From positions 1-22,684 of the IMG/VR virus record IMGVR_UViG_2711768076_000014: DNA of 22,684 nt; one strand, given 5' to 3'. Below the pieces are notes generated by a model. That model saw nothing but the letters and a program-made list of their open reading frames with translations. It was not told the origin of the DNA and made no database searches. Origin of the DNA: a virus (lineage: Duplodnaviria; Heunggongvirae; Uroviricota; Caudoviricetes). Shown piece after piece: positions 3,577 to 22,684 of the stretch. Both the position numbers and the translations under genes were made by a program. Position 1 is the stretch's first letter, and every line of letters begins with the position of its first letter.

Positions 3577-3603
3577 ATTCGCCTCCAGAGTCATTGCATA
3601 AAG

Positions 3604-4479: not shown

Positions 4480-4784
4480 AATCTTTCATCCGTAAAAAAT
4501 ACACTCGCCGTTAGTAGCAGACGAATTATCCACTGGTGAAAGATTGGGTAAATAATGAGATTGAAAATCGGGAAGGTGACTCGCAATAAATTATCTGATC
4601 ACCTACGGATGGGCGATGGGCATATAAAGTAGCCTCCTGACTCAAGCGGTGAATGCTGAGTAAGATGCACTAACAATCTGGTACTGAATCCCCTCCTCAC
4701 CGTCATACAAATCTGAAAAACCAAACAACTTCCGGTAAAATCCCGGCAAAAGCCGACGTTAAAAACACATTCAAAGGATAAAAA

Positions 4785-6337
4785 ATGACCAGTCTTCAGC
4801 AGCGCGCGGAGCTTCATCGCCAAATCTGGCAAATTGCTAACGATGTCAGAGGTTCGGTCGATGGATGGGATTTTAAGCAATACGTTCTGGGCGCGCTTTT
4901 CTACCGTTTTATCAGCGAAAATTTTTCCAGCTATATTGAAGCCGGTGATGACAGTATCTGTTATGCGAAACTGGATGACAGCGTAATTACTGATGACATT
5001 AAAGACGATGCCATCAAAACTAAAGGCTACTTCATCTACCCCAGTCAGCTTTTCTGCAACGTAGCTGCGAAAGCAAATACTAATGACAGACTGAATGCAG
5101 ATTTAAACAGCATCTTCGTTGCTATCGAAAGTTCTGCTTACGGTTATCCTTCAGAAGCTGACATCAAAGGTTTGTTTGCTGATTTCGATACCACCAGTAA
5201 CCGCCTGGGTAACACCGTTAAAGATAAAAATGCCCGCCTGGCTGCGGTTCTGAAAGGGGTTGAAGGGTTAAAACTTGGTGACTTCAACGAACATCAGATT
5301 GACCTGTTCGGTGATGCCTATGAGTTCCTGATTTCTAACTATGCGGCAAATGCCGGTAAGTCAGGCGGTGAGTTCTTTACACCGCAGCACGTCTCCAAGC
5401 TGATTGCACAACTGGCTATGCACGGGCAGACCCACGTTAACAAAATCTACGACCCGGCAGCGGGTTCCGGCTCACTGTTGTTGCAGGCGAAAAAACAGTT
5501 TGATAACCATATCATCGAAGAAGGCTTTTTCGGTCAGGAAATCAACCATACGACCTATAACCTGGCGCGTATGAACATGTTTTTGCACAACATCAACTAC
5601 GACAAGTTTGATATCAAGCTTGGCAATACGCTGACTGAACCGCACTTCAGAGATGAAAAACCGTTTGATGCCATCGTTTCTAACCCGCCGTATTCGGTGA
5701 AATGGATTGGCAGCGATGACCCGACGCTGATTAACGATGAGCGTTTTGCCCCGGCTGGCGTTCTGGCCCCCAAATCCAAAGCTGACTTTGCGTTTGTATT
5801 ACATGCGCTGAACTATCTTTCGGCCAAAGGTCGTGCTGCGATTGTCTGCTTCCCGGGTATTTTTTACCGTGGCGGCGCAGAGCAGAAAATCCGTCAGTAT
5901 CTGGTCGATAATAACTATGTCGAAACCGTAATTTCACTGGCTCCGAACCTGTTCTTTGGCACCACCATTGCCGTAAACATTCTGGTTCTGTCCAAACATA
6001 AAACGGATACCAACGTTCAGTTTATTGATGCCAGCGAACTGTTCAAAAAAGAGACCAACAACAATATCCTGACCGATGCCCATATCGAACAAATTATGCA
6101 GGTATTCACCAGCAAGGAAGATGTTGCTCATCTGGCAAAATCTGTCGCGTTTGAAGCCGTTGTAGCGAATGACTATAACCTGTCGGTGAGCAGCTATGTA
6201 GAATCGAAAGATAACCGCGAAATTATCGATATTGCTGAGCTGAATGCAGAACTGAAAACTACGGTCAGCAAAATCGACCAGTTGCGTAAAGATATCGACT
6301 CAATTGTGGCAGAGATTGAAGGTGACGAGGTGCAGGG

Positions 6338-6341
<4 letters not shown>
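4785..6341 (+). CDS. hsdM: Type I restriction-modification N6-adenine DNA methyltransferase subunit HsdM, 518 aa
   Basis: SAM-binding [10 protein letters not shown] and catalytic NPPY ([12 protein letters not shown]); N-terminal HsdM-type domain; 4-bp ATGA overlap with hsdS. Confidence 0.9.
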
Positions 6342-7543
<1,202 letters not shown>

Positions 7544-7665
7544 TTGACCATTGCTACCGATCGGGCCACCTTAACACCCGGTCAGTATATAGACTATTTT
7601 TTTACGCGCCGGAAGTCACTCTTAACGCCCTTCCGGCTCTTGCCAGGCGGCACAAAGGATGCGCT

Positions 7666-10600
7666 ATGACTCATCAAACACACACCATTGCTGAATCCAA
7701 TAACTTTATCGTCCTTGATAAGTACATCAAAGCTGAGCAAACAAGCGACAGCTACCAGAGCGAATCGGACCTGGAACGTGAACTGATTCAGGACCTGCGG
7801 AATCAGGGTTATGAATTTATTTCGGTAAAATCACAGTCAGCGATGCAGGCCAACGTTCGGGAACAGCTTCAGAGCCTCAATGGTGTGGTGTTTAATGACA
7901 GCGAGTGGCGGCGTTTCACGGAGCAGTATCTGGATAACCCGAGCGATGGCATTCTGGATAAGACCCGTAAAATCCATATCGACTATATTTGCGACTTTAT
8001 TTTTGATGACGAGCGTCTTGAGAACATCTATTTGATAGATAAAAAGAATCTCATGCGCAATAAGGTGCAGATTATCCAGCAGTTTGAGCAGGCGGGTTCT
8101 CATGCTAACCGTTATGACGTCACGATCCTGGTTAATGGCTTACCACTGGTACAAATCGAACTGAAAAAGCGCGGCGTGGCGATTCGTGAGGCTTTCAACC
8201 AGATACATCGTTACAGTAAAGAGAGTTTTAACAGCGAAAATTCCCTGTTTAAGTATCTGCAACTGTTTGTCATTTCTAACGGCACCGATACCCGTTACTT
8301 TGCCAACACCACAAAGCGCGATAAAAACAGTTTTGACTTCACCATGAACTGGGCGAAATCAGACAACACGCTGATTAAAGACCTCAAAGATTTTACCGCT
8401 ACCTTTTTCCAGAAACATACTCTGCTTAATGTTCTGGTGAACTACAGCGTGTTCGATATTAGCCAGACGCTACTGGTGATGCGACCGTACCAGATTGCCG
8501 CTACCGAACGGATCTTATGGAAAATCAACAGTTCCTATAAAGCGAAAAACTGGTCTAACCCCGAAAGCGGTGGCTTTATCTGGCACACTACCGGTTCCGG
8601 TAAAACACTGACCAGCTTTAAAGCCGCGCGCCTGGCAACAGAACTGGACTTTATTGATAAAGTCTTCTTTGTGGTCGACAGGAAAGACCTCGATTACCAG
8701 ACGATGAAGGAATATCAGCGTTTTTCCCCAGACAGCGTCAACGGCTCGGAAAATACCGCAGGCCTTAAACGAAATCTGGATAAGGACGATAACAAAATTA
8801 TCGTCACCACTATTCAGAAACTTAATAACCTGATGAAAGCAGAAAGCGACCTGCCTGTATACAATCAGCAAGTGGTGTTTATATTTGATGAATGTCACCG
8901 CAGCCAGTTTGGAGAAGCGCAGAAAAATCTGAAGAAGAAATTCAAACGCTATTATCAGTTTGGTTTTACCGGCACACCTATTTTCCCGGAAAACGCTTTA
9001 GGCTCAGAAACGACCGCCAGCGTATTTGGTCGTGAATTGCATTCATATGTGATTACCGATGCGATTCGTGATGAAAAAGTGCTCAAATTCAAGGTGGACT
9101 ATAACGATGTGCGGCCCCAGTTTAAATCTTTAGAGACAGAAACCGACGAGAAAAAACTGAGTGCGGCTGAAAATCAGCAGGCGTTTCTTCATCCCATGCG
9201 TATACAGGAAATTACGCAATATATTCTGAATAACTTCCGCCAGAAGACCCACCGTACTTTCCCAGGTTCCAAAGGCTTTAATGCCATGCTGGCAGTGAGT
9301 AGCGTGGATGCCGCGAAAGCCTATTACGCGACGTTTAAACGGTTACAAGAGGAAGCAGCTAATAAATCGGCTACCTATAAACCGCTGCGTGTTGCGACAA
9401 TCTTCTCCTTTGCCGCCAATGAAGAACAAAATGCCATTGGTGAAATTTCCGATGAAACTTTTGATACCAGCGCAATGGACAGCAGTGCTAAAGAGTTTCT
9501 TGACGCTGCAATTCGTGAGTATAACAGCTATTTTAAAACTAACTTCAGCACCGACAGTAACGGTTTTCAGAACTACTATCGTGATTTAGCCCAACGGGTT
9601 AAAAATCAGGATATCGATCTGTTAATTGTCGTTGGGATGTTTTTAACCGGCTTCGACGCTCCAACATTGAACACGCTATTCGTCGATAAAAACTTGCGTT
9701 TTCACGGCCTGATGCAGGCATTCTCCCGCACCAACCGCATTTATAACGCCACTAAAACCTTCGGTAACATCGTCACTTTCCGGGATCTGGAACGCTCAAC
9801 CATTGATGCCATAACGCTGTTTGGTGATAAAAATACCAAAAATGTAGTGTTAGAAAAGAGTTATGCAGAGTATATGGAAGGCTTTACTGATGCTGCCACT
9901 GGTGAAGCTAAACGCGGCTTTATGGCAGTAGTTTCAGAACTGGAACAACGGTTCCCTGACCCTGCCAGTATTGAAAGTGAAAAAGAGAAGAAAGACTTCG
10001 TTAAACTGTTTGGTGAATACCTGCGTGCCGAGAACATCCTGCAAAACTATGATGAATTTGCCACGCTGAAAGCCCTGCAACAAATCGATCTTAGCGATCC
10101 TGTTGCGGTAGAAAAATTCAAAGAAGAACATTATGTGGATGATGAAAAGTTCGCTGAATTACAAACGATTCGTCTCCCTGCTGAACGCAAGATTCAGGAT
10201 TATCGTTCTGCCTATAACGATATTCGTGACTGGCAGCGCCGCGAGAAAGAGGCTGGCAAAAAAGAAAAGTTAACTACTGACTGGGATGACGTGGTTTTTG
10301 AAATCGATTTGCTGAAGTCTCAGGAAATAAACCTGGATTATATCCTTGGACTGATTTTCGAACACAACAGACAAAACAAAGGTAAGGGCGAAATGACCGA
10401 AGAGGTCAAGCGCTTAATTCGTTCGAGCCTTGGGAACCGTGCCAAAGAAGGTCTGGTGGTCGATTTTATTCAACAAACAAACCTGGATGATTTGCCGGAT
10501 AAAGCCAGCATCATTGACGCGTTTTTTACCTTTGCTCAACGCGAACAGCAACGTGAAGCAGAAGCATTGATCAAAGAAGAAAATCTCAATGAAGAGGCGG

Positions 10601-10782
10601 CGAAACGCTATATTCGCACGTCTTTAAAACGCGAATACGCCACCGAAAATGGCACGGAATTAAACGAGACATTGCCAAAACTCAGTCCGTTAAATCCGCA
10701 ATATAAGACGAAAAAACAGACGGTTTTCCAGAAGATCGTCGCGTTTATTGAGAAGTTTAAAGGTGTAGGCGGGCAGATATAA
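7666..10782 (+). CDS. hsdR: Type I R-M restriction subunit HsdR (helicase-nuclease), 1038 aa, EcoR124-like
   Basis: Endonuclease-type D...ELK block ([20 protein letters not shown]), Walker A TGSGKT, DECH box ([10 protein letters not shown]); length and N-terminus [20 protein letters not shown] match my recollection of EcoR124I HsdR; separated from hsdS by 122 bp, suggesting its own promoter. Confidence 0.9.
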
Positions 10783-10964
10783 TGTATTAATCCGAACCTG
10801 ATCTGGCAGATAGCTGTCAGATCAGGACTGAGCTAATACAAATTAATATCGAACCGAAAATACCAACGCCTGTACCAACATTTTTCGTTTGCGATGGGTT
10901 GGAATTGGTTAGCCCTGAGAGAGTTAAAATAGCGAGAAAGATAGGTAACTAACGGATTTCAGAC

Positions 10965-10992
10965 ACAAAAAAAGCCGCTCTTGAGCGGCTCG
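10965..10992 (-). terminator. Rho-independent terminator downstream of the retron RT gene
   Basis: Stem agccgctc / gagcggct with ttga loop, followed on the minus strand by a run of 7 or more U; sits between convergent hsdR and RT genes. Confidence 0.55.
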
Positions 10993-11006
10993 ATTTGCAT
11001 ACGATG

Positions 11007-11022
11007 TGGTGCGAAGGCCGGA
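11007..11022. other. Degenerate att-like copy of the leuX tRNA 3' end (putative distal attachment site of the P4-like element)
   Basis: tggtgcgaaggccgga matches the reverse complement of the leuX 3' end (TGGTGCCGAAGGCCGGA, recalled from memory) with one 1-nt deletion; P4 is known to integrate at leuX. Confidence 0.3.
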
Positions 11023-11262
11023 ATAGAATAACTATATAACTCATTGAACATGATGATAAAAATTTTATAGCTTATGACTTGTGCCCCATTTTGTGCCCCC
11101 AACAAAATCTTATTGTTGCTAACTAGCACAATAAATGAATTAGCAAGATAGAGTTGCCTAGTTAGGTTCCGTCTTACAGAGCCTAACCAGAACAACCAAA
11201 CCTCTGAACCAACCTTGCGCAAGCTAGATAAAGTCATGCTGATTTATTAGGACAACAAGCTA

Positions 11263-12210
11263 TTAAATTTCATATTTTGAAATTTCGCTGATTACATCAT
11301 CCCCATATTTCTTAATCATGGAGGCAAAGAATTTATGTTCAATAAATTTCGCATAGCCTAATTCTCCTTTAAGGGTTAGAATTTCTTTCTCAGATAAAAC
11401 CCCACACACATAATAATGTATTTTACTTCTTAAAAGACGCTTTCTATCACGACCTAAAGACAAATAACCATCAGTCGTAATAGTTACACCAGTTACATGT
11501 CTATTAAACTTCCTTGAGGTAAAAACTGTTTTCTCATGGTTTATTTTAATATTCCTAAGATTTACTACGTTAAGAACTTCCCTTACTAACTTAGGAACAT
11601 CAAATAAAGCTCCTTTGACTTTGGTGCTAAACGTAAGATCATCAGCATACCTTGAGTAGGTAATACCCAAATCCTTGCATCTTTTCGATATTTCCTCATC
11701 GAAGAAATACATTACTGTATTTGAAATAATGGGAGAAGAAGGTGCTCCAACACTTAGGCGTAACGGGCTATTTCTTCTTAACTTCCAGAAGAAAAGATTT
11801 TTAAGAACAAAGATATCAGTATCAGTTAGTTCAACGCCATAATCTTTTAAGACAGATAAAAGATTATGGGGTTTGATACTCATAAAAAAGTTTTTAAAAT
11901 CCATTTTAAGCAAATAATCATTATTACAATGCATTAACGCATTAGATCTAATACTTTTATCGGCTTCATAAGCGAAAGCATTTTCATGAACTTTCAAATT
12001 AGCCAACATATGATTGATTACTACCTTCTGTAAGGCTTTAACTTGCCTAGCTGGTTGTGCAATTAATCTATATCCATTACCATTTCTTTTGGCGATAGGA
12101 TAAATTTTATATCTGCGTGGAATAGTAACAATATACCTTTTAGCCTCTTCTTCGCTAAGAAAAAGACCTTTTGAAATATAACTTAGCAACTCCATTCTAA
12201 GCCCCTCCAC
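11263..12210 (-). CDS. Retron-type reverse transcriptase, 315 aa
   Basis: RT blocks YRLIAQPARQVKALQKVV, LKMDFKNFFMSI, SVGAPSSPIISN, YSRYADDLTFS (YADD catalytic box) and VTGVTIT (retron VTG signature); size as for Ec73/Ec86-class retron RTs. Confidence 0.85.
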   Translation of the reverse strand: MEGLRMELLSYISKGLFLSEEEAKRYIVTIPRRYKIYPIAKRNGNGYRLIAQPARQVKALQKVVINHMLANLKVHENAFAYEADKSIRSNALMHCNNDYLLKMDFKNFFMSIKPHNLLSVLKDYGVELTDTDIFVLKNLFFWKLRRNSPLRLSVGAPSSPIISNTVMYFFDEEISKRCKDLGITYSRYADDLTFSTKVKGALFDVPKLVREVLNVVNLRNIKINHEKTVFTSRKFNRHVTGVTITTDGYLSLGRDRKRLLRSKIHYYVCGVLSEKEILTLKGELGYAKFIEHKFFASMIKKYGDDVISEISKYEI

Positions 12211-13183
12211 GCACGATATTGATTTGATTTAGAGCATTTTTCCTTTTTTTTGCAGTCTCGTCCATATCTTTAGCATCCATACTTAAGTAAGATTGTCGGA
12301 TTGCAACCTTAATATTCATAGAATCCTTTATTTTACCACTAGCACTGATACCAAATTTAAGTTTACTCTCTCTATGCCCTCGGGAATAGAAGTAGTCTGT
12401 ACCACTGTAAGATAATGATGAGGTTAATTTCATCTTTTCAAGCAAATAAAGTAAACGAGTTATTATTTTTTGTGGCACATCTATATCCATACAGTATAGT
12501 GCCCACTCTATTTCGCTTTTCTTGATTGGTTCTGATAAAAGGATTATTTCGTAAATCAATATAGCTAGGTGCCCAGTATTTTCAGGGTTATATCGCTCCG
12601 TTTTTTTTACACGTTTTAATCTAGAATGAATATCATGGTAGATAAGCTCAACCTCATCATATTTCATACGATCCGATTTTGGCCATGGATAAACTGATAC
12701 TGAGGCCTCATCTATTTTTTTAAGATACTCCAAAGGGCCTAAATATATAAAAGAAGATCTAGCAGGAATATTTTTTCGTTCATTTCCCTCAATCTCCTCA
12801 AATGGTGCGACTACATGCAATTTTTGAGCTAGAGACTTCCTATTAACAAATAATCCAAGCTCAACTAACGAACCTGCACTTTCTAAACAGATAACAACTA
12901 ATGTTGAAATATTTGCAATATCATCTTCAAAGCTCATTAGATCTGAATATGCCCCCTCTCTGAAGTAGTCATGGAAGTTCTCAGCTAAAATAAGAGAATC
13001 TGACAATTCAGGTTTGTGGCCTGCTACATAAGTAAATATGTGGTCTCGTACACTCATTGGAGTGGAATTTATCGGCCCACCACAAACAAAAATAATAGGA
13101 GGCATGAACTGAACAGTGAAATTTGAATATTTCAAATCTCCAAACTGCTCTTGTAATGCATTCATATATGCAGAATCACTCAC
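12197..13183 (-). CDS. Retron accessory/effector protein (type II-like, possibly nucleoside deoxyribosyltransferase-like plus DNA-binding), 328 aa
   Basis: Lies between the msd hairpin and the RT gene and overlaps the RT start by 14 bp; AT-rich like the RT gene; family assigned by context only. Start is GTG at 13183 or ATG at 13165. Confidence 0.6.
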   Translation of the reverse strand: MSDSAYMNALQEQFGDLKYSNFTVQFMPPIIFVCGGPINSTPMSVRDHIFTYVAGHKPELSDSLILAENFHDYFREGAYSDLMSFEDDIANISTLVVICLESAGSLVELGLFVNRKSLAQKLHVVAPFEEIEGNERKNIPARSSFIYLGPLEYLKKIDEASVSVYPWPKSDRMKYDEVELIYHDIHSRLKRVKKTERYNPENTGHLAILIYEIILLSEPIKKSEIEWALYCMDIDVPQKIITRLLYLLEKMKLTSSLSYSGTDYFYSRGHRESKLKFGISASGKIKDSMNIKVAIRQSYLSMDAKDMDETAKKRKNALNQINIVRGGA

Positions 13184-13204
13184 CCTTGTGACCCCCTACT
13201 CCAA

Positions 13205-13480
13205 AAGAAAAGGTGGCTAACCAGCCACCTTCGACCCCTTTACCTAAAGGATGCGCTTTAGACTTTCAGCAAGATCCTGAATGGAACGCAGTGGCATGAA
13301 GGATCTTGCTGAAAGTGCTAAAGCGCAACCCTAAATGTCCACAATAAATTAGTGTCTGGCGAAACGCCCGACAAGGATAAACCTGTTATCCCGCGCGTAA
13401 AGGTAGGGTTAGGATAGCAAAAGATGCGAGATTTTCAATAAGTAAGCGTACTGGCTGCCAGCAACCACCTAAACCATTGA
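13205..13480 (-). ncRNA. Retron msr-msd non-coding RNA (approximate bounds)
   Basis: Upstream of the effector gene: short stem-loops (ggataa/ttatcc 13374-13390; ggcg/cgcc about 13354-13364; aacccta/tagggtt) typical of msr, plus a 27-bp near-perfect hairpin at 13254..13325 typical of msd; a1/a2 repeats not found with confidence. Confidence 0.5.
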
Positions 13481-13810
13481 CATTTAAACAAAAATAAATC
13501 TAACAATTGAAAGCAATACCTTATTGAATACAGCATTCTTATATCTCTCTTGATATCGCAACATCACAATTATCACCGTTAGTGCGGGCAGCCCCGCACG
13601 CCTGCCCGCTTCGCTTAACAGACTGGTTTTCATGCACCTCATTAATCGTCTCAGAAGCCAGCACACAAGGGTTTTCTCGTCAAAAATGGTGCATAAGACT
13701 CATGCGTTTTCATGCGCCATAGACATGCACTCATGCGCTCTCATGTCAGCCAGGAAAAGGGGGTAAAAAATCCCGGTACTGGACCGGGATTACGTGGGCG
13801 TTCTTTCTAA

Positions 13811-14083
13811 TCAGACAGGAATCTGCTGACGGCTTGACAGTTTTGACGCGGAGCCATAGCGATTGAGCGTTTTCTGTTGTTTTTCCGGGGATTGTGCTTT
13901 GTCTGATAGCTGTTCATTGCGCCGGGGTTTCATGATTATCTTATCCACACTCTCCAGTGCCGTAAATGTGCAGGAACATTCCAGATTCTGGCACTGATAC
14001 CACGAGCGTTTAACTGACGGAGCTTCATAGGCTGCTGTTCTGGCGTGTGCAACTGTACCGCATTCCGGACATTTAAGTGCCAT
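13811..14083 (-). CDS. Ogr/Delta-family zinc-finger late-gene transcriptional activator, about 90 aa
   Basis: MALKCPECG...YQCQNLECSCTF matches the Cys4 Ogr/Delta pattern; AGGAG sits 8 nt before the ATG at 14083 (the six-frame ORF extends to a GTG at 14092). Confidence 0.8.
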   Translation of the reverse strand: MALKCPECGTVAHARTAAYEAPSVKRSWYQCQNLECSCTFTALESVDKIIMKPRRNEQLSDKAQSPEKQQKTLNRYGSASKLSSRQQIPV

Positions 14084-14088
14084 TAATA

Positions 14089-14640
14089 TCACTCCTGTAT
14101 ATCGTTAATGTCATTCAGGCGTTGCTGAAAACGCAGATGTTGTGCCGGGGTGTAAGAACCCTGGCAATCACGAATCATCCCGGGGTCAGGCATCAAACCG
14201 GATTCATCCAGGATCTCACGATAATCCCCGGCAATTTCAGGCGGTGTTATTGCCAGCTGGCGAACCAGAGCACTGCGTAATATACGGGACGCAACGTCAA
14301 CCCCTCCGCGCCCCTTCAGGAACGGAGCCAGTGCAGATGTCAGGGCTGCCCCATTCGCCTGCATAAAATTGCTGAGAGCGGCTTCTGTGCAGGCCTCCAT
14401 CAGTAAATGCTGCGAGTAAATGCATTCGCGCGCAGCACAGTTAATTTGCCATTTCAGCACATCCAGACGTTCCCGCAGTAATTCGAGCTGTCGGGCATAA
14501 TCTGCTGGTTTTTCTGTGGCAGCGAGGAGAGATGTTATCTGTTGTTCAACGGCTTTTCGGCTCTCATTATGTCCGGCCCACAGAATACGGGCATTCCGAA
14601 AACTGGTAAGTGCCTGGTCAGGCGTGCCTCGGGCCGTCAT
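14089..14640 (-). CDS. psu: Psu-like polarity-suppression / capsid-decoration protein, 183 aa
   Basis: Blocks LKWQINCAAR, FMQANGAALTSALAPFL and YTPAQHL resemble my recollection of P4 Psu (190 aa); ATGA overlap with the upstream gene. Confidence 0.55.
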   Translation of the reverse strand: MTARGTPDQALTSFRNARILWAGHNESRKAVEQQITSLLAATEKPADYARQLELLRERLDVLKWQINCAARECIYSQHLLMEACTEAALSNFMQANGAALTSALAPFLKGRGGVDVASRILRSALVRQLAITPPEIAGDYREILDESGLMPDPGMIRDCQGSYTPAQHLRFQQRLNDINDIQE

Positions 14641-15380
14641 ACTGCTTTCTCCTTCTCAGCAAGTTCCTGACGAACCTTAATTTTATGCATAGCTGCCGGA
14701 GAGAGTTGATTACTGAAATCCAGACGCGCCGCATAATCCGGGGCAACTCCCGCCAGTTTAAACACCGGGTCCTGCTCAGGCATCGCATCGTTAGCCAGAG
14801 CCGGTCTGGTGATATGTTTATGAATAAAGTCTTTCAGCACTGTGTCCGGGTCATTAACTGAATTCACCACACCCACAACGGCACTGGCTTCCCGGCCCAT
14901 TGTGGATTTAAGCAGGCTCAGCGTCTGAATAAGCGCTTTTCCATGCGACTGCATAAAATCCTCCCAGATTTGTTTTGCGCGAATATCCACAAGAATGTTA
15001 TGCGCGTGGATATACTTTCCGGCTAATTCTGCAGCTTTCTGCGGCAAAAGTGCATTTTCGCTTTCCTGAGCCGCCAGCAGCTCATCAAAATCCTCAAGCG
15101 TTTCTCGTCCCAGCGCAATTTCCGTGCGCAGTTTTTTCATTTCCTTTGAGACCACGCCCTGACTTTCACGAAACAGCGTGCGCCACTCCTCATTCAGTGT
15201 GTTCGTCGTGGCTTCCATTTCAGCGCGACGCTGGCGGATTGTCGCAATATTATCCGCTGCCGCTTTCTGCTGACGACGTGCTTCAAGCCATGCGTTTCTG
15301 GCTGTGTTCATGGTTTCCAGTGCCCGCTGCGTTACAGCCGGAAAAGTGGAAAGGTTGTTATTCACTGCGGTGTTGTTCAT
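14637..15380 (-). CDS. Sid-like external scaffold (capsid size determination) protein, 247 aa, tentative
   Basis: Size close to P4 Sid (244 aa), Ala/Glu/Arg-rich helical character, first gene of the operon with Psu and Ogr/Delta, preceded by AGGAG and TGT-N12-ACA dyads; no direct motif match recalled. Confidence 0.4.
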   Translation of the reverse strand: MNNTAVNNNLSTFPAVTQRALETMNTARNAWLEARRQQKAAADNIATIRQRRAEMEATTNTLNEEWRTLFRESQGVVSKEMKKLRTEIALGRETLEDFDELLAAQESENALLPQKAAELAGKYIHAHNILVDIRAKQIWEDFMQSHGKALIQTLSLLKSTMGREASAVVGVVNSVNDPDTVLKDFIHKHITRPALANDAMPEQDPVFKLAGVAPDYAARLDFSNQLSPAAMHKIKVRQELAEKEKAV

Positions 15381-15415
15381 GACTTCTCCTGTCGGGTTGG
15401 TTCGTTACGTCAATT

Positions 15416-15471
15416 GTGTCGTGGCTGACACAAGCACACTATCGGTGCTCAGTGTGTGGTGGCTGGCACAA
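15416..15471 (-). promoter_or_regulatory. Two TGT-N12-ACA dyads (putative Ogr/Delta-dependent late promoter of the sid-psu-delta operon)
   Basis: tgtGTCGTGGCTGACaca at 15416-15433 and tgtGTGGTGGCTGGCaca at 15454-15471, 36 to 82 bp upstream of the sid-like ATG; P2/P4 late promoters carry this element. Confidence 0.5.
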
Positions 15472-15558
15472 CGGACGCTTGCGGTTATTCAGACGTGGCT
15501 ATGAAAGCCAGCCAGATAAAAATGCCCTCTGTTTCAGTCTGCTTTATGTCCCTGATGC

Positions 15559-15747
15559 GGTGGAACAGGTGAAACATGTGTTACAGCTTTGTTTTATAAG
15601 GCATTTATATACACTGCACCGGTGGAACATCGCGGGTAACAAGGTGGAACAGCGGATTGGCTGGCGTTACATCTGTTCCACCTCACTATTTCAGAAGGTG
15701 GAACAGGTTCAGCCCTGTAAAATACGGTTGTTCCACCTGTTTCACCT
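15559..15747. repeat. Iteron array: at least 6 copies of GGTGGAACAG / CTGTTCCACC in both orientations (putative ori or crr)
   Basis: Copies at 15559, 15621 (variant), 15643, 15673 (inverted), 15697, 15728 (inverted), plus tgtttcacc at 15739; immediately downstream of the primase gene; resembles the P4 alpha-binding octamer TGTTCACC (from memory). Confidence 0.5.
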
Positions 15748-15780
15748 GTTACCCTTAATAAATAAGACTCACGCAAAGCC

Positions 15781-18453
15781 TTAACCCGGCACCTCGCTGT
15801 TGAAGACATAGAGCCTGCGGGGATTCATCTCTGGCGGGCGAATGGTTGTCTGGAGTTTGCCATCAGTGGAGGGCAGCAGGTATCCACGATCTGCGCACAG
15901 ACGCGCCACCTTGCGCGGGTCAAATCCCCTGCAGATTTCTTTCCAGCCGGACGGCATGACATAGAACGTAGTGACAGCTTCCGTGCCCTGCGCGGTACTG
16001 CCTTTCTCCACCCTGCGCCAGCCCACCATATTGCCGGGGCGGTTGCGCTCGTCATACCAGTCTGCAAAGCGGCTGTACTGATTCGCGGTAAAGAAACTGC
16101 GAACCTGCTCCAGTGCGGCGATATCTTCCTGATTGGCGGTGTGCCCGCGATCTTTCAGCCATGCGTTCAGGCAGACGCGGGTTGCCCGCAGTGCTTCACC
16201 CTCAGGCCAGCCGGTGATACCCAGACGGGTTGCCAGTTCACCTGCCATCGCCACCAGAGCAAAGCGGTTCACAGCCCGGCCCACCTGATTGCCTGCATCT
16301 TTCGGAGTCAGGGCGGCAGCATATTCCTTCATCAGCGATTTTGCCTGTGCCGTTAGTCCGTTAAGATCAGCGGTCAGTGCTTTCAGCCACTCCCGGAACG
16401 GCGAACCGTAGTAGCAGGACGTGGCCCATTCAAGATGCTCTGCCAGAGCCTTGCCGCTGTCGAAGCCGTGCAGCTCCTCAAAAACGCCAAACTTCCCGGA
16501 ATCGCTGGGGATCTGGATCATCCTGACTTCCATCCCGGCAAAAGTACGCTCACCGGCCTTTGCCGCATGTTCGGTCAGAGACAACTCGCCAGTTGAAAAG
16601 AACAACAGGCGCCAATGCTTACGGGTACGCAGCTCACCGTCCGTACCGGCACGGCCCTTGCCCTGACCGTTTGCCAGCATGTAGGCGATATTGCCTGCCT
16701 CGCGTCCGTCAACTTCCCGGATCTCATCAAGCATCATGGCGGCATCGTTGCGGCGGCTGGCGCATCCCTCCAGCGCGTTGCCGGTGGCCCGCCATGTCTG
16801 CCAGTAGTCAGGCCCGCCGCAGACGGAGGTTGCCGCTTTCATGGTGGTGGTCTTACCGTCTGTCGATTCCCCTTTGAGGTGGTAGCCGCCGCCGTCCATA
16901 CCAACCAGCCGTAACAGTGGTGCAGCAAAGGCCAGGCTGACAGCAAATGCCACGCGGGAGTTGCCGGTACAGTAGCGGGATACATGCTCCCGCCATTCCT
17001 CTGTTGTGCCCGACACGCGGAAATCACGCCCCTGCACGGAAGTGGTCTGGAGAATGACACCCTCTGCACCTTCACCGCTGACCTCATCCTGCAGGACGTA
17101 AACCTGACCATGCCAGCCAGTACGACTGACGCAGGTCACGCGGCGTTCCGGTTTACACAGTGAGATATATTCCATCAGGCGTGCGCGTGCCTCACCGGTG
17201 GTGCTGATATAAGACAGCCCGTTAACCAGCAATACCCGGCGCAGTTCCTCACCACTGCCGCTCAGCATTTCCATCGGCATCGCCCAGCGGCGACACTCAC
17301 CCCACGTATCTTCCCATTCCAGCAGTCGTCCGAAGTTACCGCCATCGGCATCGCAGGTGATTGCCGTCACGCGCAGCGGGCTGCATATTTTGACGTTCTG
17401 GATCTCCGTCTCACCGTTGCGCTGTACCTGCTTTTCATACCAGAGATATTCCTGGGTAAGACGGAACCCGTGCGGCAGTTGCGTGCGGCCCTCCCCGCAC
17501 AGCACCAGACCGTTACGAAAGGCTTCACGGGCGCGGGTAATACCGTGCTCCCGATGGAAGTCATTCCAGTCGGCCTTAATCTCTCCCGGTGGCAGCGTCA
17601 TCCAGCCGCCAACAGCTTTTGCCGCCCGTTCAGCAAAGGCTCTGCCGGGATTCTCACCCCCGTCCTGAAAATCGTTATCACCGGCGATGATAATTTTTAC
17701 CTCAGGCCAGCGTGCCCGCAGCGACTGCGCCACATTGGGCAGGTTGCCCGCAGATATGGCAGCCACTACGCATCCGGCAGTGAGCTGACTTACCGTCAGC
17801 GCCGTAGCGTAACCTTCGGTAATCACCACCTGTACCGGTGGTTCAGACGGTAACGGGCTGAGCGACACAAACGCGCCTTTCATCGTGCTGCCGGGCAGTA
17901 TGCTTTTTTCACCCGTCGGGGCGATAAGCTGTGCACCAGTCACGGCTCCGGTGTTGGTCGTGAGTGGTAACAGCAGGGAACCGGCAGGAAAATCCTTACC
18001 GCTGATATGCTGCACGCTTCCGGTCAGAGAGGCCGGGTATCCGGCGAACCCTTTTCCTGTCAGATAGGCGCTTTCTCCCGTGTGGCTCTCTTTCATCAGC
18101 GCCGCCACGGTAAGACCCATGTCGCGTTTAGGGGCTTTTTTTCTGGCAGGCTTAACAGGCAGTTCCTGCACATCCGGCACATTAAGCACCTGCGCCACCT
18201 CCTGCGCAGCCTTTCTGACGCTGTAACCGGTTACGAGCTTAACCAGATCCAGACCGTCACCATTGCCACACTGGCTGCAGATCCACGTCCCGCGCCCGTC
18301 AAGGTCATCAAGGCGAAAACGATCCTTGCCCCCACATTTCGGGCAGGGACCGTGCCTGCCGTTTTCAGGTACATCAATACGCAGCATCTGGAGAATAACG
18401 GGCCATTTCCCCCGTGCGGCGGCTGAAATCTGCGTAACCGTCTGTATTGTCAT
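15781..18453 (-). CDS. Phage/plasmid primase-helicase (P4 alpha-like), 890 aa
   Basis: N-terminal zinc-binding CPKCGGKDRF...CSQCGNGDG, Toprim-like IIAGDNDFQDGGENPG, P-loop GESTDGKTT; largest ORF of the element. Confidence 0.85.
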   Translation of the reverse strand: MTIQTVTQISAAARGKWPVILQMLRIDVPENGRHGPCPKCGGKDRFRLDDLDGRGTWICSQCGNGDGLDLVKLVTGYSVRKAAQEVAQVLNVPDVQELPVKPARKKAPKRDMGLTVAALMKESHTGESAYLTGKGFAGYPASLTGSVQHISGKDFPAGSLLLPLTTNTGAVTGAQLIAPTGEKSILPGSTMKGAFVSLSPLPSEPPVQVVITEGYATALTVSQLTAGCVVAAISAGNLPNVAQSLRARWPEVKIIIAGDNDFQDGGENPGRAFAERAAKAVGGWMTLPPGEIKADWNDFHREHGITRAREAFRNGLVLCGEGRTQLPHGFRLTQEYLWYEKQVQRNGETEIQNVKICSPLRVTAITCDADGGNFGRLLEWEDTWGECRRWAMPMEMLSGSGEELRRVLLVNGLSYISTTGEARARLMEYISLCKPERRVTCVSRTGWHGQVYVLQDEVSGEGAEGVILQTTSVQGRDFRVSGTTEEWREHVSRYCTGNSRVAFAVSLAFAAPLLRLVGMDGGGYHLKGESTDGKTTTMKAATSVCGGPDYWQTWRATGNALEGCASRRNDAAMMLDEIREVDGREAGNIAYMLANGQGKGRAGTDGELRTRKHWRLLFFSTGELSLTEHAAKAGERTFAGMEVRMIQIPSDSGKFGVFEELHGFDSGKALAEHLEWATSCYYGSPFREWLKALTADLNGLTAQAKSLMKEYAAALTPKDAGNQVGRAVNRFALVAMAGELATRLGITGWPEGEALRATRVCLNAWLKDRGHTANQEDIAALEQVRSFFTANQYSRFADWYDERNRPGNMVGWRRVEKGSTAQGTEAVTTFYVMPSGWKEICRGFDPRKVARLCADRGYLLPSTDGKLQTTIRPPEMNPRRLYVFNSEVPG

Positions 18454-18833
18454 ACTTCCCCCTGATACAACGTCACACCGGTACTGCAGAAGTCATCAAA
18501 GGCCGCCGGAAGCGTGCGGTACATCTCCGCCATCACTTCACAGCCGCGCGCGGTCAGTACCGGCGGCGCGGTCAGCAGTGACGGCTCCAGCATGTCAGTC
18601 AGCAGTGCCAGCGCGGCAGCGGCGCCCTGTGCTTCGCCGTACTCGTTAATCAGTACGCACTCGATATGCAGCGCAATGGCCATTTCAATACGCTCCACCG
18701 TCAGGCTGTGCGGACCATACTGATCACTGCCAGTTTCGTTCAGCATTTTCTGCCGCCATGCTGAAGCAATAGCCCGCCGGTAAAGCGCGGTGGTCATTTC
18801 TGCCGGGAAAATGGAAACCTGCGGCTGGTTCAT
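18450..18833 (-). CDS. Hypothetical P4-like small protein, 127 aa
   Basis: AGGAGG 6 nt upstream of ATG; stop overlaps the primase start (ATGA); start overlaps the upstream ORF stop. Confidence 0.5.
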   Translation of the reverse strand: MNQPQVSIFPAEMTTALYRRAIASAWRQKMLNETGSDQYGPHSLTVERIEMAIALHIECVLINEYGEAQGAAAALALLTDMLEPSLLTAPPVLTARGCEVMAEMYRTLPAAFDDFCSTGVTLYQGEV

Positions 18834-19114
18834 CTGGCACCTCCTTCAATCAGTGCGCAGCTGTGTGCAATATCCGTCAAATCTGCCAGCAGGTACTCCA
18901 TCAGCGCGGCGACACCATGCGCACAGCCAGCGTCCAGTGCTCCGGCCTGAGACGGGTATTCAGAAAAGAGAAGCTGGAGCATGTCGCAGGCATTTCTTGC
19001 GCGGGTCAGTTTTCCGAAACTGTCCTCTGACAACCCATAGGCAAAAGCACCGGTATTGTGTTTTTCAGGCAAAGTGTGGCCCTGAGCACCGTTGTGCCCG
19101 TTTGAAATATTCAT
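18830..19114 (-). CDS. Hypothetical P4-like small protein, 94 aa
   Basis: GGAG 6 nt upstream of ATG; translationally coupled to the downstream gene. Confidence 0.45.
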   Translation of the reverse strand: MNISNGHNGAQGHTLPEKHNTGAFAYGLSEDSFGKLTRARNACDMLQLLFSEYPSQAGALDAGCAHGVAALMEYLLADLTDIAHSCALIEGGAR

Positions 19115-19145
19115 CGTGGATTACTCCGTTTTCAGCGGTATTTTG

Positions 19146-19505
19146 TCAGAGAAACTTTGAATAGTGACCGTCGTCAGGCTCAGCAGAACGCCGTATGCTA
19201 CGCTCCCGCCAGCGGATAAATAGCACAGACGGATGCAGTGTCAGCGGGCCGGAACCACTACCGCCAGCAGGAGCTGGTGCAGGCTTCAAGAGCGGTACAT
19301 CAAACAGGCGCGTATACCGCTGTTCAAACCATGCCAGAGGGCAGGAAGAAAGCTGGTTGTCGCTGTCATGACGTATCAGCACTTCACAGCTGAATTCAGG
19401 ATTAACCAGCGCCACAGAGGGCGAGGCTTCTATTAATCGGATAATCGTGACCGTCCAGCCACGTTCATGCTGCCAGCGTTCGCCGGGGTGCGGATAATTA
19501 CGCAT
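19146..19505 (-). CDS. Hypothetical P4-like small protein, about 119 aa
   Basis: GGAGG 5 nt upstream of the ATG at 19505 (MRNYPHPGERWQ...); the six-frame ORF extends further to 19535. Confidence 0.45.
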   Translation of the reverse strand: MRNYPHPGERWQHERGWTVTIIRLIEASPSVALVNPEFSCEVLIRHDSDNQLSSCPLAWFEQRYTRLFDVPLLKPAPAPAGGSGSGPLTLHPSVLFIRWRERSIRRSAEPDDGHYSKFL

Positions 19506-19674
19506 GTTCACCTCCGCAGGGAATGCGCCCGGCAAAGCTCAGTACATAGTCCGGGGCAAGTCTGCGCCGCGCTGACCGCTCGTTATCTGCGGTGATCCTT
19601 AACATCACAGGACGGGCATTGCGTTGACTGCGGTTGATCGCCGCAAATAACCAGGTACACTTCTGTTTAGCCAT
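19498..19674 (-). CDS. Hypothetical small basic protein, about 58 aa
   Basis: GAGGT 7 nt upstream of the ATG at 19674 (MAKQKCTWLF...); stop overlaps the next gene start; C-terminal part of a longer six-frame ORF that I otherwise reject. Confidence 0.35.
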   Translation of the reverse strand: MAKQKCTWLFAAINRSQRNARPVMLRITADNERSARRRLAPDYVLSFAGRIPCGGEHA

Positions 19675-19750
19675 CTTCGTTACCTCATTTAGCGGATTGG
19701 TCAGAAGCCCGGTTAGTGTTGCTGCACTGTCGGGCTTCGCACTCACAAGG

Positions 19751-19840
19751 TGAATCGCACCTTTAATTTTAAAGCTACCCTTAAGTGAATCGCACTTCAA
19801 GCTTTTTATTATCATTTTTTTTGCATATACTGAATCGCAC
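19751..19840. promoter_or_regulatory. Three direct copies of TGAATCGCAC in the divergent control region
   Basis: Exact 10-mers at 19751-19760, 19786-19795 and 19831-19840, between the leftward small-gene cluster and the rightward 61-aa gene; the last copy overlaps a TATACT -10-like hexamer (19826-19831). Confidence 0.4.
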
Positions 19841-19861
19841 CTAACGCGAGGAGATCCAGTA

Positions 19862-20047
19862 ATGGCAACGAGTTCAACTAACAACAAGTCGCAGCAACTT
19901 AATGCTCGTTTCCCACATGATGTAGTTGCAGAATTAGAAAGCAACCTTGAAGATGGAGAAACGAAAGCGCAATTCATTGTTACGGCTGTAAAAGGCGAGA
20001 TTAAACGCCGACAGCGCAGGAAAAATAAGCCAGAGCAAGGAAGTTGA
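19862..20047 (+). CDS. Small putative DNA-binding regulator, 61 aa, basic C-terminus
   Basis: AGGAG 8 nt before ATG; the only plus-strand gene in the P4-like module, divergent from the small-gene cluster; basic tail KRRQRRKNK. Confidence 0.45.
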   Translation: MATSSTNNKSQQLNARFPHDVVAELESNLEDGETKAQFIVTAVKGEIKRRQRRKNKPEQGS

Positions 20048-20143
20048 ATAGAGAAGCCAACAGACGTTCTCTCTGTTTCCATGTTAATTTCAGTAAGCGA
20101 CAATATTTTTAAGCCCACAAATTCATTATGTCGGGCTTTTTTA

Positions 20144-20374
20144 TTAGTGATTTTCATATCGCTCACCACGAGAGGCATATATTTGCTCTTGAATCCAGTG
20201 ATCCACTTCGCTTTCAACAAATGAAATTGCACGAGTTCCTATTTTCACCGGACGGGGAAATGTATTGTTTGCAAGCTGTTTGTAAAGCCATGCCTTGCTA
20301 CGCTGAACGCGTCTTAAGACCTCTTTTGCTGAGATAAGAGTCTGATTATCTGAAAAGCTGTTTGCATATTCCAT
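20144..20374 (-). CDS. alpA: AlpA-family phage transcriptional regulator / excisionase-like HTH protein, about 76 aa
   Basis: LISAKEVLRRVQRSKAWLYKQLANNTFPRPVKIGTRAISFVESEVDHWI is the classic AlpA HTH; GGAG 7 nt before the ATG at 20374 (the six-frame ORF extends to 20419). Confidence 0.8.
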   Translation of the reverse strand: MEYANSFSDNQTLISAKEVLRRVQRSKAWLYKQLANNTFPRPVKIGTRAISFVESEVDHWIQEQIYASRGERYENH

Positions 20375-21421: not shown

Positions 21422-22684
21422 TTATTTTCCATGCATACGCGCAAAATCATATGGTGTGACAGATCCATTCTTATTAGCATCAATATAATCAGCCCACCAC
21501 TGCAGCATTAATCTTCTTTCTTCAAGATATTCGGAAGTATGCATATATGAACCTTTCACATTTTTTCGTTCAACGTGGCTTAACTGTCTTTCAATGGCAT
21601 CATCATTCCATAGTTTCGACTCACTTAGCGCACCACGCGCCATAGTTCTAAACCCATGACCACATACTTCAGTTTTCGTATCATATCCCATTACACGTAA
21701 GGCGTTATTTACTGTATTTTCACTCATTACTTTTTTAGGATCATGATCGCTGGGAAATATAACCTCACCTTTACCACTCAAGGCATGTAAACGTTTAAAA
21801 ATATCAAATGCTTGTTTGCTAAGCGGAACAATATGTTCAGTTTTCATCTTCATCCCACGCTCAGAGTGTTTTACGCCGGGAATAGGCTTACGAATTCCGG
21901 GTATTGTCCACTCGCTTCGTTCAAAGTTAACCTCACTCCAGCGAGCAAAACGCATCTCACTTGAACGTATAAATGTGAGTAGCGTTAATTCAACGGCAAG
22001 CCGTGTCATTAGTCGCCCTTTATAGCGTGATAGTCTTTCAAGAAGCTCAGGGATTCTTTTTGGGGGTAGTGCTGGGTGGTGGGTTGCTTTAACGCTTAAA
22101 AGCGCTCCAGCCATATCGCATGCAGGATTTGATTCAAGGAGGTCATTCTGCACACCAAAACGCATAATTGCGGTTACGCGCTGCATCAGTCGCTGCGCGA
22201 CATCATGTTTACCCGCCGTATCGACAGCTTTGATTGGATTGAGAAGCTGGCTGGTTCTCAACGTTCTGGCATCGATTTGACCTATCGAGGGGAAAATATA
22301 CTGCTCAAGTGTCAGCAGAACACGACGGCTATGATCTTCGCTCCAAGTAAGGTTACTTGCGTGCCATTGCCTTGCGATAGTTTCAAATAAATATGCCCCC
22401 TCAATTTCAGCTTGTGCCCCCTTTTGCTCAGCTTTGGGGTCAATACCCTGAGACAACAATTTCTTTGCTGCATCGCGCTTACCCCGCGCTTCAGCCAAAG
22501 TGACCGTCGGGTATACACCAAAAGCGAGTCGATCTTCCTTTTTGTCAGAGGGGCGGCGATATTTCATGCGCCAGTACTTAGAACCTTTAGGGGAGACCTC
22601 AAGATACAAACCGCCTCCATCAGCCATTTTATAAGCTTTCTCTTTCGGCTTTGCGGTCTCTATCTGGCGAGCGTTGAGTTTCAT
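21422..22684 (-). CDS. int: P4-type tyrosine integrase, 420 aa
   Basis: N-terminal MKLNARQIETAKPKEKAYKMADGGGLYLEVSPKGSKYWRMKYR is the P4-integrase arm-binding signature; C-terminal catalytic region with HGFRTMARG and a downstream Tyr; start codon at the window edge, tRNA presumably just beyond. Confidence 0.9.
   Translation of the reverse strand: MKLNARQIETAKPKEKAYKMADGGGLYLEVSPKGSKYWRMKYRRPSDKKEDRLAFGVYPTVTLAEARGKRDAAKKLLSQGIDPKAEQKGAQAEIEGAYLFETIARQWHASNLTWSEDHSRRVLLTLEQYIFPSIGQIDARTLRTSQLLNPIKAVDTAGKHDVAQRLMQRVTAIMRFGVQNDLLESNPACDMAGALLSVKATHHPALPPKRIPELLERLSRYKGRLMTRLAVELTLLTFIRSSEMRFARWSEVNFERSEWTIPGIRKPIPGVKHSERGMKMKTEHIVPLSKQAFDIFKRLHALSGKGEVIFPSDHDPKKVMSENTVNNALRVMGYDTKTEVCGHGFRTMARGALSESKLWNDDAIERQLSHVERKNVKGSYMHTSEYLEERRLMLQWWADYIDANKNGSVTPYDFARMHGK

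Follow-up and report, generated by a model that had tools for sequence, protein, structure and literature searches.

A reverse transcriptase (RT) gene encoded in the window analysed here (22,684 nt; positions 1 to 22,684 of IMG/VR virus record IMGVR_UViG_2711768076_000014) raises the question of which retron it belongs to and in what setting that retron lies. A preliminary description, made from the sequence without database searches, proposed a complete type II retron at the distal end of a P4-like satellite and suggested that it might be Ec73 (Retron-Eco3) of retronphage phiR73, a close relative of Ec73, or a new variant with a different effector. [quoted passage not shown] We conclude, with a probability of roughly 0.92, that this is Retron-Eco9 in intact form: a type II-A1 retron of the Sen2/St85 family that makes up the sole cargo in the hotspot of a P4-like satellite at leuX.

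Table 1. Features of the retron and of the satellite that carries it, in window coordinates.
Feature	Position	Strand	Basis
attR TGGTGCGAAGGCCGGA	11007..11022	.	16/17 first nt of leuX 3' end and P4 attP core
Retron RT (rrtT/RT-Eco9), 310 aa	11263..12195	-	PADLOC, NCBIfam, motifs, Eco9 primers JB391/JB392 at its two ends
Effector/toxin RcaT, 328 aa	12197..13183	-	PADLOC, NCBIfam, phmmer, AlphaFold/Foldseek, primers JB368, JB369, JB390
Intrinsic-terminator-like hairpin and U-run, between a2 and effector start codon	13203..13232	-	Terminator scan
a2 inverted repeat GTAAAGG	13237..13243	-	Repeat and covariation
msd, 74-nt imperfect hairpin, predicted msDNA stem-loop template	13253..13326	-	Centroid and MFE folds, Rfam STnc400
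msr, not reverse-transcribed; stem-loops 13392-13375 and 13373-13353	13338..13404	-	Rfam msr RF00170, fold
GCG directly following a1, with predicted branching guanosine	13394..13396	-	Conservation and Sen2 homology
a1 inverted repeat CCTTTAC, pairs with a2	13397..13403	-	Repeat and covariation
Promoter-like site, -35 TTGAAA, 16-nt spacer, TG-extended -10 TATCCT	13411..13438	-	Consensus scan
cos-like site (GCGAAGCGGGCA/GGCGTGCGGGGCTGCCCGCAC junction), cargo directly after	13582..13614	-	Alignment with P4 right end
Ogr/Delta-like late activator	13811..14092	-	PF04606 E 1e-15; phrog_603
psu (14089-14640) and sid-like Psu paralogue (14637-15380)	14089..15380	-	PF07455 E 1e-44, 1.8e-9; phrog_6366, phrog_6165
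Alpha-type primase/helicase	15781..18453	-	DUF927, Toprim_3, Zn_Ribbon_Prim; phrog_1139 E 1e-183
Tyrosine integrase, adjoins leuX just beyond window	21422..22684	-	phrog_1

The RT and its family

The RT reading frame spans 11263..12210 (-), and its likely start is the ATG at 12195, which gives a 310-aa protein and agrees with both the PGAP annotation and the Eco9 primer JB391. Retron RTs are defined by the retron-specific NAXXH and VTG motifs together with the catalytic YADD (PMC12475279). All three are present here (NALMH at residue 85, YADD at 183 and VTG at 234 in 310-aa numbering), the latter two as the preliminary description had read them. The protein matched the PADLOC model RT_II-A at 7.9e-121 (401 bits), with RT_I-A a close second at 374 bits, and the best 25 of 71 PADLOC matches were all retron RT models. 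Grouping with group II intron RTs had been named in advance as an outcome that would overturn the retron reading; in the NCBIfam scan, the RT scored 45.4 bits against the group II intron RT model (cut-off 300) compared to 333.8 bits against retron_St85_RT (cut-off 235). The solved RTs nearest to it were of type I-A (9N69, Ec78, Ec83), far ahead of Ec86. Together, the model scores and nearest structures point to a clade 1 RT with the ncRNA–RT module that is common to type I-A retrons, as is characteristic of type II-A1.

The effector

The accessory gene ahead of the RT encodes 328 aa from its GTG start, the length originally reported, or 322 aa from the alternative start M7, and its reading frame stops 1 nt ahead of the RT start. 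The protein matched PADLOC NDT_II-A over its full length (1.8e-87) and NCBIfam STM3845_fam at 223.7 bits (cut-off 100); RT and effector both exceed the curated cut-offs for the type II-A/St85 retron family in PADLOC and NCBIfam. Judged by these profile matches, the effector belongs over its full length to the STM3845/RcaT family, which disposes of the suggestion of a new variant with a different effector.

The N-terminal NDT-like domain carries the invariant LESxGSxVELG and E108. An alignment to known retron proteins, proposed at the outset, was productive for this protein, which phmmer matched to the Ec86 effector (E 2e-6) with E108 aligned to Eco1 E106 and the catalytic-site Glu conserved; for the RT it failed to support Ec73, as discussed below. 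An AlphaFold model of the effector (pLDDT 86) matched the Retron-Eco1 effector 8qbk_E over its full length in Foldseek (316 columns, E 5e-10, TM ~0.5). The C-terminal region probably resembles winged-helix DNA-binding domains; the matches of the model to winged-helix regulators were weaker and partial, with high probability but E ≥0.09. The NDT_II-A and STM3845_fam matches and the Eco1 effector fold are the marks of a type II-A1 effector.

A genome scan with effector peptide patterns returned 22 loci. Salmonella Sen2 was absent from these 22, and no protein starting with MFEELL, the N-terminus of Sen2 RcaT, was retrieved by the scan; the retrieved match nearest to Sen2 RcaT by N-terminus was P0107 (MFEE..., 42% identical).

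The non-coding RNA

The region upstream of the effector had been described as structured, with an msd-type hairpin, and it folds at -99.3 kcal/mol (z = -6.4, with none of 200 shuffles folding as well) with a 74-nt hairpin at 13326-13253. An equivalent long msd hairpin, differing in sequence, occurs at every related locus, and the msr stem-loop GTCGGGCGTTTCGCCAGAC is nearly invariant across these loci. Searching the region with retron ncRNA models, as had been advised, gave a divided result: no Rfam family matched at gathering score, but a permissive Rfam search returned sub-threshold matches to msr RF00170 (13338-13404; 42.2 bits, E 4.8e-6, gathering score 52) and to STnc400 RF02058 (13197-13333; 55.4 bits, E 7e-10). 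STnc400 maps between STM3844 and STM3845, where the Sen2 ncRNA is encoded, and the Rfam family represents the stretch of Sen2-type retron ncRNAs that holds the msd, a2 and the terminator.

An a1/a2 repeat of 6–11 bp was present in 22 of 22 related ncRNA sequences. For the covariation analysis, a1 and a2 sequences were extracted by anchoring on the conserved TTTA and TAAA cores, and a whole-ncRNA MAFFT alignment was set aside because it misregistered a1 between the TTTAC and TTTA classes. Across 20 distant loci, 85.5% of cells were paired and 6 of 10 pairs had changes on both sides; the covariation score was 0.274 compared to 0.119 for shuffles, with 0 of 500 shuffles as high and all slid controls beaten. 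The G directly 5' of a2 is invariant among related loci, and every one of the 22 sequences has G[C/T]G after a1. A Sen2 primer that changes the branching G to T puts the branch G in the homologous TTTAGCG, and from this homology we infer that the priming guanosine here is one of two residues, 13396 or 13394. The locus has the parts expected of a retron ncRNA, namely an a1/a2 pair, a guanosine by a1, msr stem-loops and an msd hairpin.

Two candidate control elements flank these parts. The promoter-like site, ~7 nt upstream of a1, has 9 of 12 consensus matches plus the TG extension and may be the promoter for the ncRNA or operon; promoter-like sites in the region were no commoner than in shuffles. 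The terminator-like hairpin consists of a 10-bp stem followed by a T-run and lines up with the second stem in the Rfam STnc400 family. A hairpin and T-run occupy the same place in 16 of the 22 sequences, without sequence conservation.

The satellite and its cargo slot

The retron is alone in the cos-proximal hotspot (~11023-13580) of a P4-like satellite of ~11.8 kb integrated at leuX, and the GC content is 35% in the cargo versus 50% in the satellite core. The P4-like core genes int, alpha primase, sid, psu and delta are all present by Pfam and PHROG matches. Neither the satellite core nor the retron had a blastn match in a phage collection, and P4 was reached from the core at the protein level only. 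Integration in a tRNA gene is indicated by the duplicated att core, by an intact leuX (tRNA-Leu) that directly follows int in strain M217, and by the empty integration site seen in strain 22-250. A 92-aa reading frame at 10959-11237 spans attR, had no family match and is unannotated by PGAP; we treated it as spurious.

As the preliminary description had noted, an Ogr/Delta gene and a cos-like site adjoin the retron. We aligned the cos-like site with the right end of P4, which ends at GCAAAGCGGGCG; in three other E. coli satellites, conservation of the region reaches the predicted cohesive end and stops there. The site is assigned as a P2/P4-type cos by positional homology in a multiple alignment with other satellites. 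When the P4 cos junction was instead aligned blind and locally to the whole window, the best score was 20, inside the alpha gene, which is not significant against a shuffle maximum of 19. The proposal that the cos-proximal slot is a position for variable cargo was borne out: the block common to 847 genomes ends at 13576-13592, just past cos, and the slot is filled in other satellites by Hachiman, an ABC-three-component system or an AAA ATPase pair.

Compared to P4 (NC_001609), the satellite has homologues of int, alpha, sid, psu and delta and a cos homologous to the P4 right end, and its cargo adjoins cos where P4 has gop-beta-cII, the P4-like defence hotspot in which other satellites carry other defence systems (Rousset et al., 2022). 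It differs from P4 in having no nucleotide-level match, in its Psu (29.5% identical) and in gene order, with sid-psu-delta running in the direction of alpha and int at the alpha end rather than by the cargo.

Relation to Retron-Eco9 and other characterised retrons

Very probably, this retron is the Retron-Eco9 known from E. coli NILS-16, an identity that we judged from primers and residue numbering rather than from the NILS-16 reference sequence. Seven of seven published Eco9 cloning primers (JB368-371 and JB390-392) map to the locus in the expected order and orientation, at the msr start, at the start, end and +107 of rcaT, at the RT start and end, and downstream of the RT. The primer named for +107 of rcaT (JB390) maps at +107 of the effector gene, and the positions published for RcaT-Eco9 (Ser155/181/254/292) correspond to effector S161/187/260/298, four of four fitting at a constant offset of +6. 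The msr-msd, rcaT, RT order also agrees with that of Eco9, as does the NDT-like effector class (Palka 2022). Beyond 1–3 single-base gaps per published primer, we found no demonstrable difference from Eco9.

With Retron-Sen2 (St85) of Salmonella Typhimurium (STM3845/STM3846), the locus shares the family models, whose cut-offs it exceeds, the operon order and a homologous ncRNA, with the STnc400 match including a2 and the terminator stem. In the Bobonis preprints, Sen2 follows the same tripartite toxin–antitoxin logic with a cross-usable ncRNA, whereas Eco9 and Sen2 are 49% identical in RT and 43% in RcaT and their RT–toxin pairs are not interchangeable; the Eco9 msr is reported to be 85% identical to that of Sen2. 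Unlike in Sen2, the a1/a2 helix here has one extra C-G pair (TTTAC...GTAAAG vs TTTA...TAAAG) and the retron is carried on a P4-like satellite. Retron-Eco1 (Ec86; type II-A3; structures 7V9X/7XJG/8QBK) shares the two-domain effector fold and catalytic Glu motif but has an effector only ~18% identical and an RT in a different clade. By analogy, it is the best structural model for the way in which RT–msDNA would sequester an NDT-like toxin.

The locus is common. PGAP assigns the same protein names in 156 complete E. coli genomes, and in 154 of these the identity is ≥99%; the locus DNA is thus present at that level in 154 of 5,426 complete E. coli genomes, with many copies 100% identical. The exact RT and the exact effector each occur on at least 1000 contigs of a public collection, as the dominant alleles, and both proteins are widespread across E. 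coli, Salmonella and Klebsiella records.

Alternative readings

The proposed identity with Ec73 or a close relative draws on real likenesses: Ec73 has the same ncRNA–effector–RT gene order, an RT of similar length (316 aa, compared to 310 aa here), RTs covered by the same NCBI 'St85 family' name, and a place beside cos as cargo of a P4-like satellite. The RT here, however, was just 31% identical to RT73_ECOLX over 288 residues (BLASTP E 5e-35, with a query confirmed as the exact database entry), the Ec73 RT was absent from the best 120 RT homologues, and the msd differs. The element studied here lies at leuX with the P4 att core, whereas phiR73 is integrated in selC. At the level of RT sequence, identity with Ec73 is refuted, and we give this reading virtually no weight. 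What survives of it is the subtype, since II-A1 includes Ec73, Sen2 and this retron (Mestre et al., 2020).

A closer competitor, though still an improbable one, is a distinct and uncharacterised II-A1 allele of the St85 family that resembles Retron-Eco9, in which case the primer mismatches would be real. As text, each of the seven primers shows small gaps relative to the window, and 2 of the 156 genomes carry a variant of the retron at 90–95% identity, so alleles do exist. The differences are nevertheless all single-base gaps, several of them in the coding regions of functional genes, whose reading frames would be broken, and at most one substitution occurs over 188 primer bases (one mismatch column in JB392, possibly a shifted gap). 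We assume that the gaps arose in text extraction, because a real gap in JB391 would frameshift a demonstrably active RT. The exact fit of the +107 landmark and of the four phosphoserine positions and the dominance of the window's exact proteins likewise argue against a separate allele. We consider it more improbable again that the locus is a decayed or silent remnant that makes no msDNA and provides no defence. The Rfam matches below gathering thresholds could be read in this way, but both reading frames are intact with all catalytic motifs and the invariant effector residues, a1/a2, GCG, the msr stem-loops and the msd hairpin are all preserved, many genomes carry 100% identical DNA, and a toxin without its antitoxin would be selected against. 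An intact Retron-Eco9 is the reading that we carry forward.

Proposed mechanism and implications

In the mechanism that we propose, one promoter (~13438-13411) would drive the ncRNA and then, by read-through of the terminator-like hairpin, rcaT and the RT. The RT would bind the msr stem-loops, prime from the 2'-OH of a G in the GCG after a1 and copy the msd hairpin to give branched msDNA with a predicted length of ~83–97 nt, which, according to the literature, host RNase H and ExoVII would mature. Branched msDNA of Eco9 has been reported by gel and by sequencing (Bobonis preprints; Palka 2022). If the retron is Eco9, RT–msDNA should bind and neutralise RcaT to form a tripartite toxin–antitoxin system, as the Bobonis preprints show for Eco9 and Sen2. 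RcaT is most likely an NDT-like and winged-helix toxin related to the NAD+-hydrolysing effector of Retron-Eco1. Phage functions that modify or degrade msDNA (Dam methylation, RecE-type exonucleases) would release RcaT, and the released toxin would stop growth and abort the infection. Defence by Eco9 is reported for the phages T2 and T7; the kinase of T7 reportedly counteracts it by phosphorylating RcaT (T7 kinase paper).

We also offer, tentatively and at somewhat short of even odds, the proposal that the terminator-like hairpin is a built-in attenuator, that STnc400 is the 3' half of a retron ncRNA, and that the retron is the first cargo into a transduced cell. In the Rfam alignment, the hairpin forms the 3' stem of STnc400, a Salmonella 'sRNA'. 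As an attenuator, the hairpin, which lies between a2 and the toxin start, would make the ncRNA far more abundant than the rcaT–RT message. Because the retron is the first DNA after cos, it may be the first of the satellite's cargo to reach a newly transduced cell. In the literature consulted, neither the attenuator role nor the first-entry point is stated.

The retron family, Retron-Eco9, its toxin–antitoxin mechanism and the P4-like defence hotspot are all already published; the discovery value of the locus is small, and it is of some use for annotation. The experimentally studied Retron-Eco9 is now tied to a concrete mobile context, a P4-like satellite at leuX. If the attenuator proposal is true, the hairpin would set the safety margin of the toxin–antitoxin system by keeping the ncRNA, the precursor of the antitoxin, in excess.

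Identity of the retron

[quoted passage not shown] The RT ORF specifies 315 aa from a GTG at 12210 or 310 aa from the first ATG at 12195, the latter being both PGAP's choice in identical genomes and the start in published primer JB391, and it contains the motifs NALMH (85), YADD (183), and VTG (234) and matches Pfam RVT_1. The best PADLOC model was RT_II-A (7.9e-121), with RT_I-A close behind. The RT scored 333.8 bits against NCBIfam retron_St85_RT (cut-off 235), whereas the NCBIfam group II intron RT model gave 45 bits, well below its cut-off of 300; thus, the group II intron affiliation named in the preliminary description as evidence against a retron was not found. Among solved RTs, the nearest are those of type I-A retrons (9N69, Ec78, and Ec83; 9N69 is typed in PMC12475279), consistent with the ncRNA–RT module common to types I-A and II-A1 (Mestre et al., 2020).

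The effector ORF (12197-13183, minus strand; 328 aa) has its stop 1 nt ahead of the RT start. The effector had no match in a local Pfam copy, was matched over its full length by PADLOC NDT_II-A (1.8e-87), and scored 223.7 bits against NCBIfam STM3845_fam (cut-off 100), and the earlier suggestion of a new variant with a different effector is rejected. Its only solved relative by sequence is the effector of Ec86 (Retron-Eco1; E 2e-6), with invariant E108 (LESAGSLVELG) aligning with the Glu that is changed to Ala in the inactive E106A structure. The AlphaFold model, for which 20 homologues were used (pLDDT 86.3, pTM 0.87), likewise matched the Retron-Eco1 effector (E 5e-10, 316 columns), with partial, weaker matches of the predicted fold to winged-helix regulators. 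Databases annotate two effector starts, the GTG giving 328 aa and M7 giving 322 aa (13165-13183, minus strand). The MSDSAY extension is kept in Klebsiella, Pantoea, Dickeya, and Providencia homologues, and we therefore favor the longer form; the T7 kinase study numbers RcaT from the shorter one.

The preliminary description had proposed Ec73 (Retron-Eco3 of phiR73) or a close relative. This identity was ruled out, as the RT is only 31% identical to the exact database entry for the Ec73 RT, RT73_ECOLX. All seven Retron-Eco9 cloning primers map to the locus in order (see table). Each aligns with 1–3 single-base gaps and at most one mismatch, possibly a shifted gap, and a primer for the branching-G mutant of Sen2 (the Salmonella Typhimurium retron) is likewise one base short. 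The primer sequences come from the text of Supplementary Table 5 of bioRxiv 10.1101/2020.06.22.160168, which seems to have lost characters and is not to be relied on base for base. Because several of the gaps would shift the reading frame in genes that are active, we assume that they stem from this text. Independently, four RcaT-Eco9 serines named in the T7 kinase study (Ser155, Ser181, Ser254, and Ser292) all coincide with serines of the window effector at a constant offset of +6, which corresponds to numbering from M7. The retron is very probably Retron-Eco9, something already known, correctly found and well delimited.

By this identity, we carry the mechanism described for Eco9 and Sen2 over to the window copy. 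In the Bobonis preprints, RcaT is a toxin whose antitoxin is the RT–msDNA complex, with specificity supplied by the RT, neutralization requiring msDNA, and msDNA maturation depending on RNase H and ExoVII. The same preprints list Dam methylation and RecE as triggers of Sen2, RecE and RT-Eco1 as triggers of Eco9, and RacC as a blocker of both toxins. Eco9 defends against T2 and not T5 according to Palka (2022). According to the T7 kinase study, it also protects against T7, provided that RcaT is not phosphorylated by the T7 kinase. The Eco1 effector, which is related to RcaT, hydrolyzes NAD+ (PMC12475279).

The retron ncRNA

The region 5′ of the effector folds at −99.3 kcal/mol (z = −6.4 versus dinucleotide shuffles) and includes a 74-nt hairpin; this structure, the two ORFs, and the YADD and VTG motifs were all confirmed as previously described. 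Rfam found no family over the ncRNA at the gathering threshold, and a permissive scan gave sub-threshold matches to msr (RF00170; 13338-13404, 42.2 bits, E 4.8e-6) and STnc400 (RF02058; 13197-13333, minus strand, 55.4 bits, E 7e-10). STnc400 was reported as a Salmonella sRNA that has a 190-nt precursor and maps between STM3844 and STM3845. As this is the Sen2 ncRNA locus, the match reflects homology to the msd, a2, and terminator of Sen2, and the Rfam family ("Gammaproteobacterial sRNA") thus seems to represent the 3′ half of a retron ncRNA.

For comparison, we fetched 22 loci with effectors 29–51% identical to that of the window, and analyzed 22 ncRNA sequences, window included. Every one had a flanking inverted repeat of 6–11 bp (a1/a2), G[C/T]G directly after a1, G just 5′ of a2, and a long hairpin of variable sequence between the repeats. 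Across 20 loci, once the sequences had been anchored at the conserved cores TTTA and TAAA, the a1/a2 helix had a standard pair in 85.5% of cells and both-side changes at 6 of 10 pairs; its covariation score was 0.274, compared to a shuffled mean of 0.119 (0/500 shuffles as high) and 0.113 for the best slid control. Two helix classes were seen, TTTA/GCG...AG/TAAAG and TTTAC/GCG...AGG/TAAAG, differing by one whole C–G pair inserted at the inner end; the window (13394-13403 and 13237-13244) and seven other loci have the latter. In 16 of 22 Sen2-type sequences, a2 and the toxin start are separated by a terminator-like hairpin with a U-run, unconserved in sequence, which may act as an attenuator that keeps toxin and RT expression low compared with the ncRNA.

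The cargo slot and its flanks

On its right, the retron is followed by delta/ogr, psu, a sid-like paralogue, the alpha primase, DUF5375, small genes, and int, which adjoins tRNA-Leu in strain M217. Three other satellites and the right end of P4 are conserved up to GCGAAGCGGGCA/GGCGTGCGGGGCTGCCCGCAC at cos and then diverge completely, and the other satellites carry at this place an AAA ATPase pair, an ABC-three-component system, or Hachiman, bearing out the earlier placement of the retron beside Ogr/Delta and cos at a P4-like variable cargo position. The block common to 847 E. coli genomes ends at 13576-13592, with only 156 continuing into the retron. At the other end, attR (TGGTGCGAAGGCCGGA, 11007-11022) matches the leuX 3′ end and P4 attP core at 16/17 nt; strain 22-250 has the unoccupied site, hsdR-leuX-ahr. 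These cos and attR boundaries therefore delimit the cargo as 11023-13580, the retron alone, with 35% GC versus 50% in the rest of the satellite. This slot is the hotspot reported by Rousset et al. Compared to P4, the satellite differs in gene order (sid-psu-delta versus sid-delta-psu; 13811-22684). Its sid-psu-delta genes and alpha share one orientation, and its int lies at the alpha end beside leuX, whereas int adjoins the cargo in P4 and the satellites of strains 10671 and AZ147.

A terminator-like hairpin directly beyond the 3′ fragment of leuX (GAGCCGCTCAAGAGCGGCTTTTTTT, 10972-10991, minus strand) is probably the native leuX terminator. A 92-aa ORF (10959-11237, minus strand) spanning this hairpin and attR had no family match and is probably not a gene. 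Most complete genomes with the retron cease to resemble the window at 10954, 53 bp beyond attR. At that point M217 carries a second, degraded integrase along with IS3 fragments and a group II intron, a pattern suggestive of tandem or decayed leuX islands in such strains. A defense-type cluster (989-10782) lies outside the satellite, and its hsdR directly adjoins the unoccupied leuX in 22-250.

Positions of retron features, Retron-Eco9 primers, and genes left of attR
Feature	Position	Strand	Description
Promoter-like −35/−10	13438-13411	−	predicted
a1	13403-13397	−	CCTTTAC
GCG	13396-13394	−	with predicted branching G
msr stem-loop 1	13392-13375	−	
msr stem-loop 2	13373-13353	−	
msd hairpin	13326-13253	−	74 nt
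a2	13243-13237	−	GTAAAGG
Terminator-like hairpin	13232-13203	−	strong, with U-run
Effector start codon	13183	−	GTG
JB370	13432		start of msr
JB368	13183		start of rcaT
JB390	13077		"+107 nts of rcaT"; exactly +107
JB369	12192-12209		end of rcaT
JB391	12195		start of RT
JB392	11263		end of RT
JB371	11217-11240		downstream of RT
HNH protein	989-1639		left of attR
AbiEii/AbiEi	2283-3645		left of attR
DUF4942	3646-4479		left of attR
Type I R-M	4785-10782		left of attR; hsdM-hsdS-hsdR, EcoR124-like

Distribution

The retron DNA (2.36 kb) is present at ≥99% identity in 154 of 5,426 complete E. coli genomes and at 90–95% in two more. The exact RT and effector each occur in at least 1000 contigs under the name "MULTISPECIES retron St85 family", and the entries for both include Salmonella enterica and Klebsiella names besides E. 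coli. This pattern is consistent with recent spread of the retron between genera, plausibly on the satellite.
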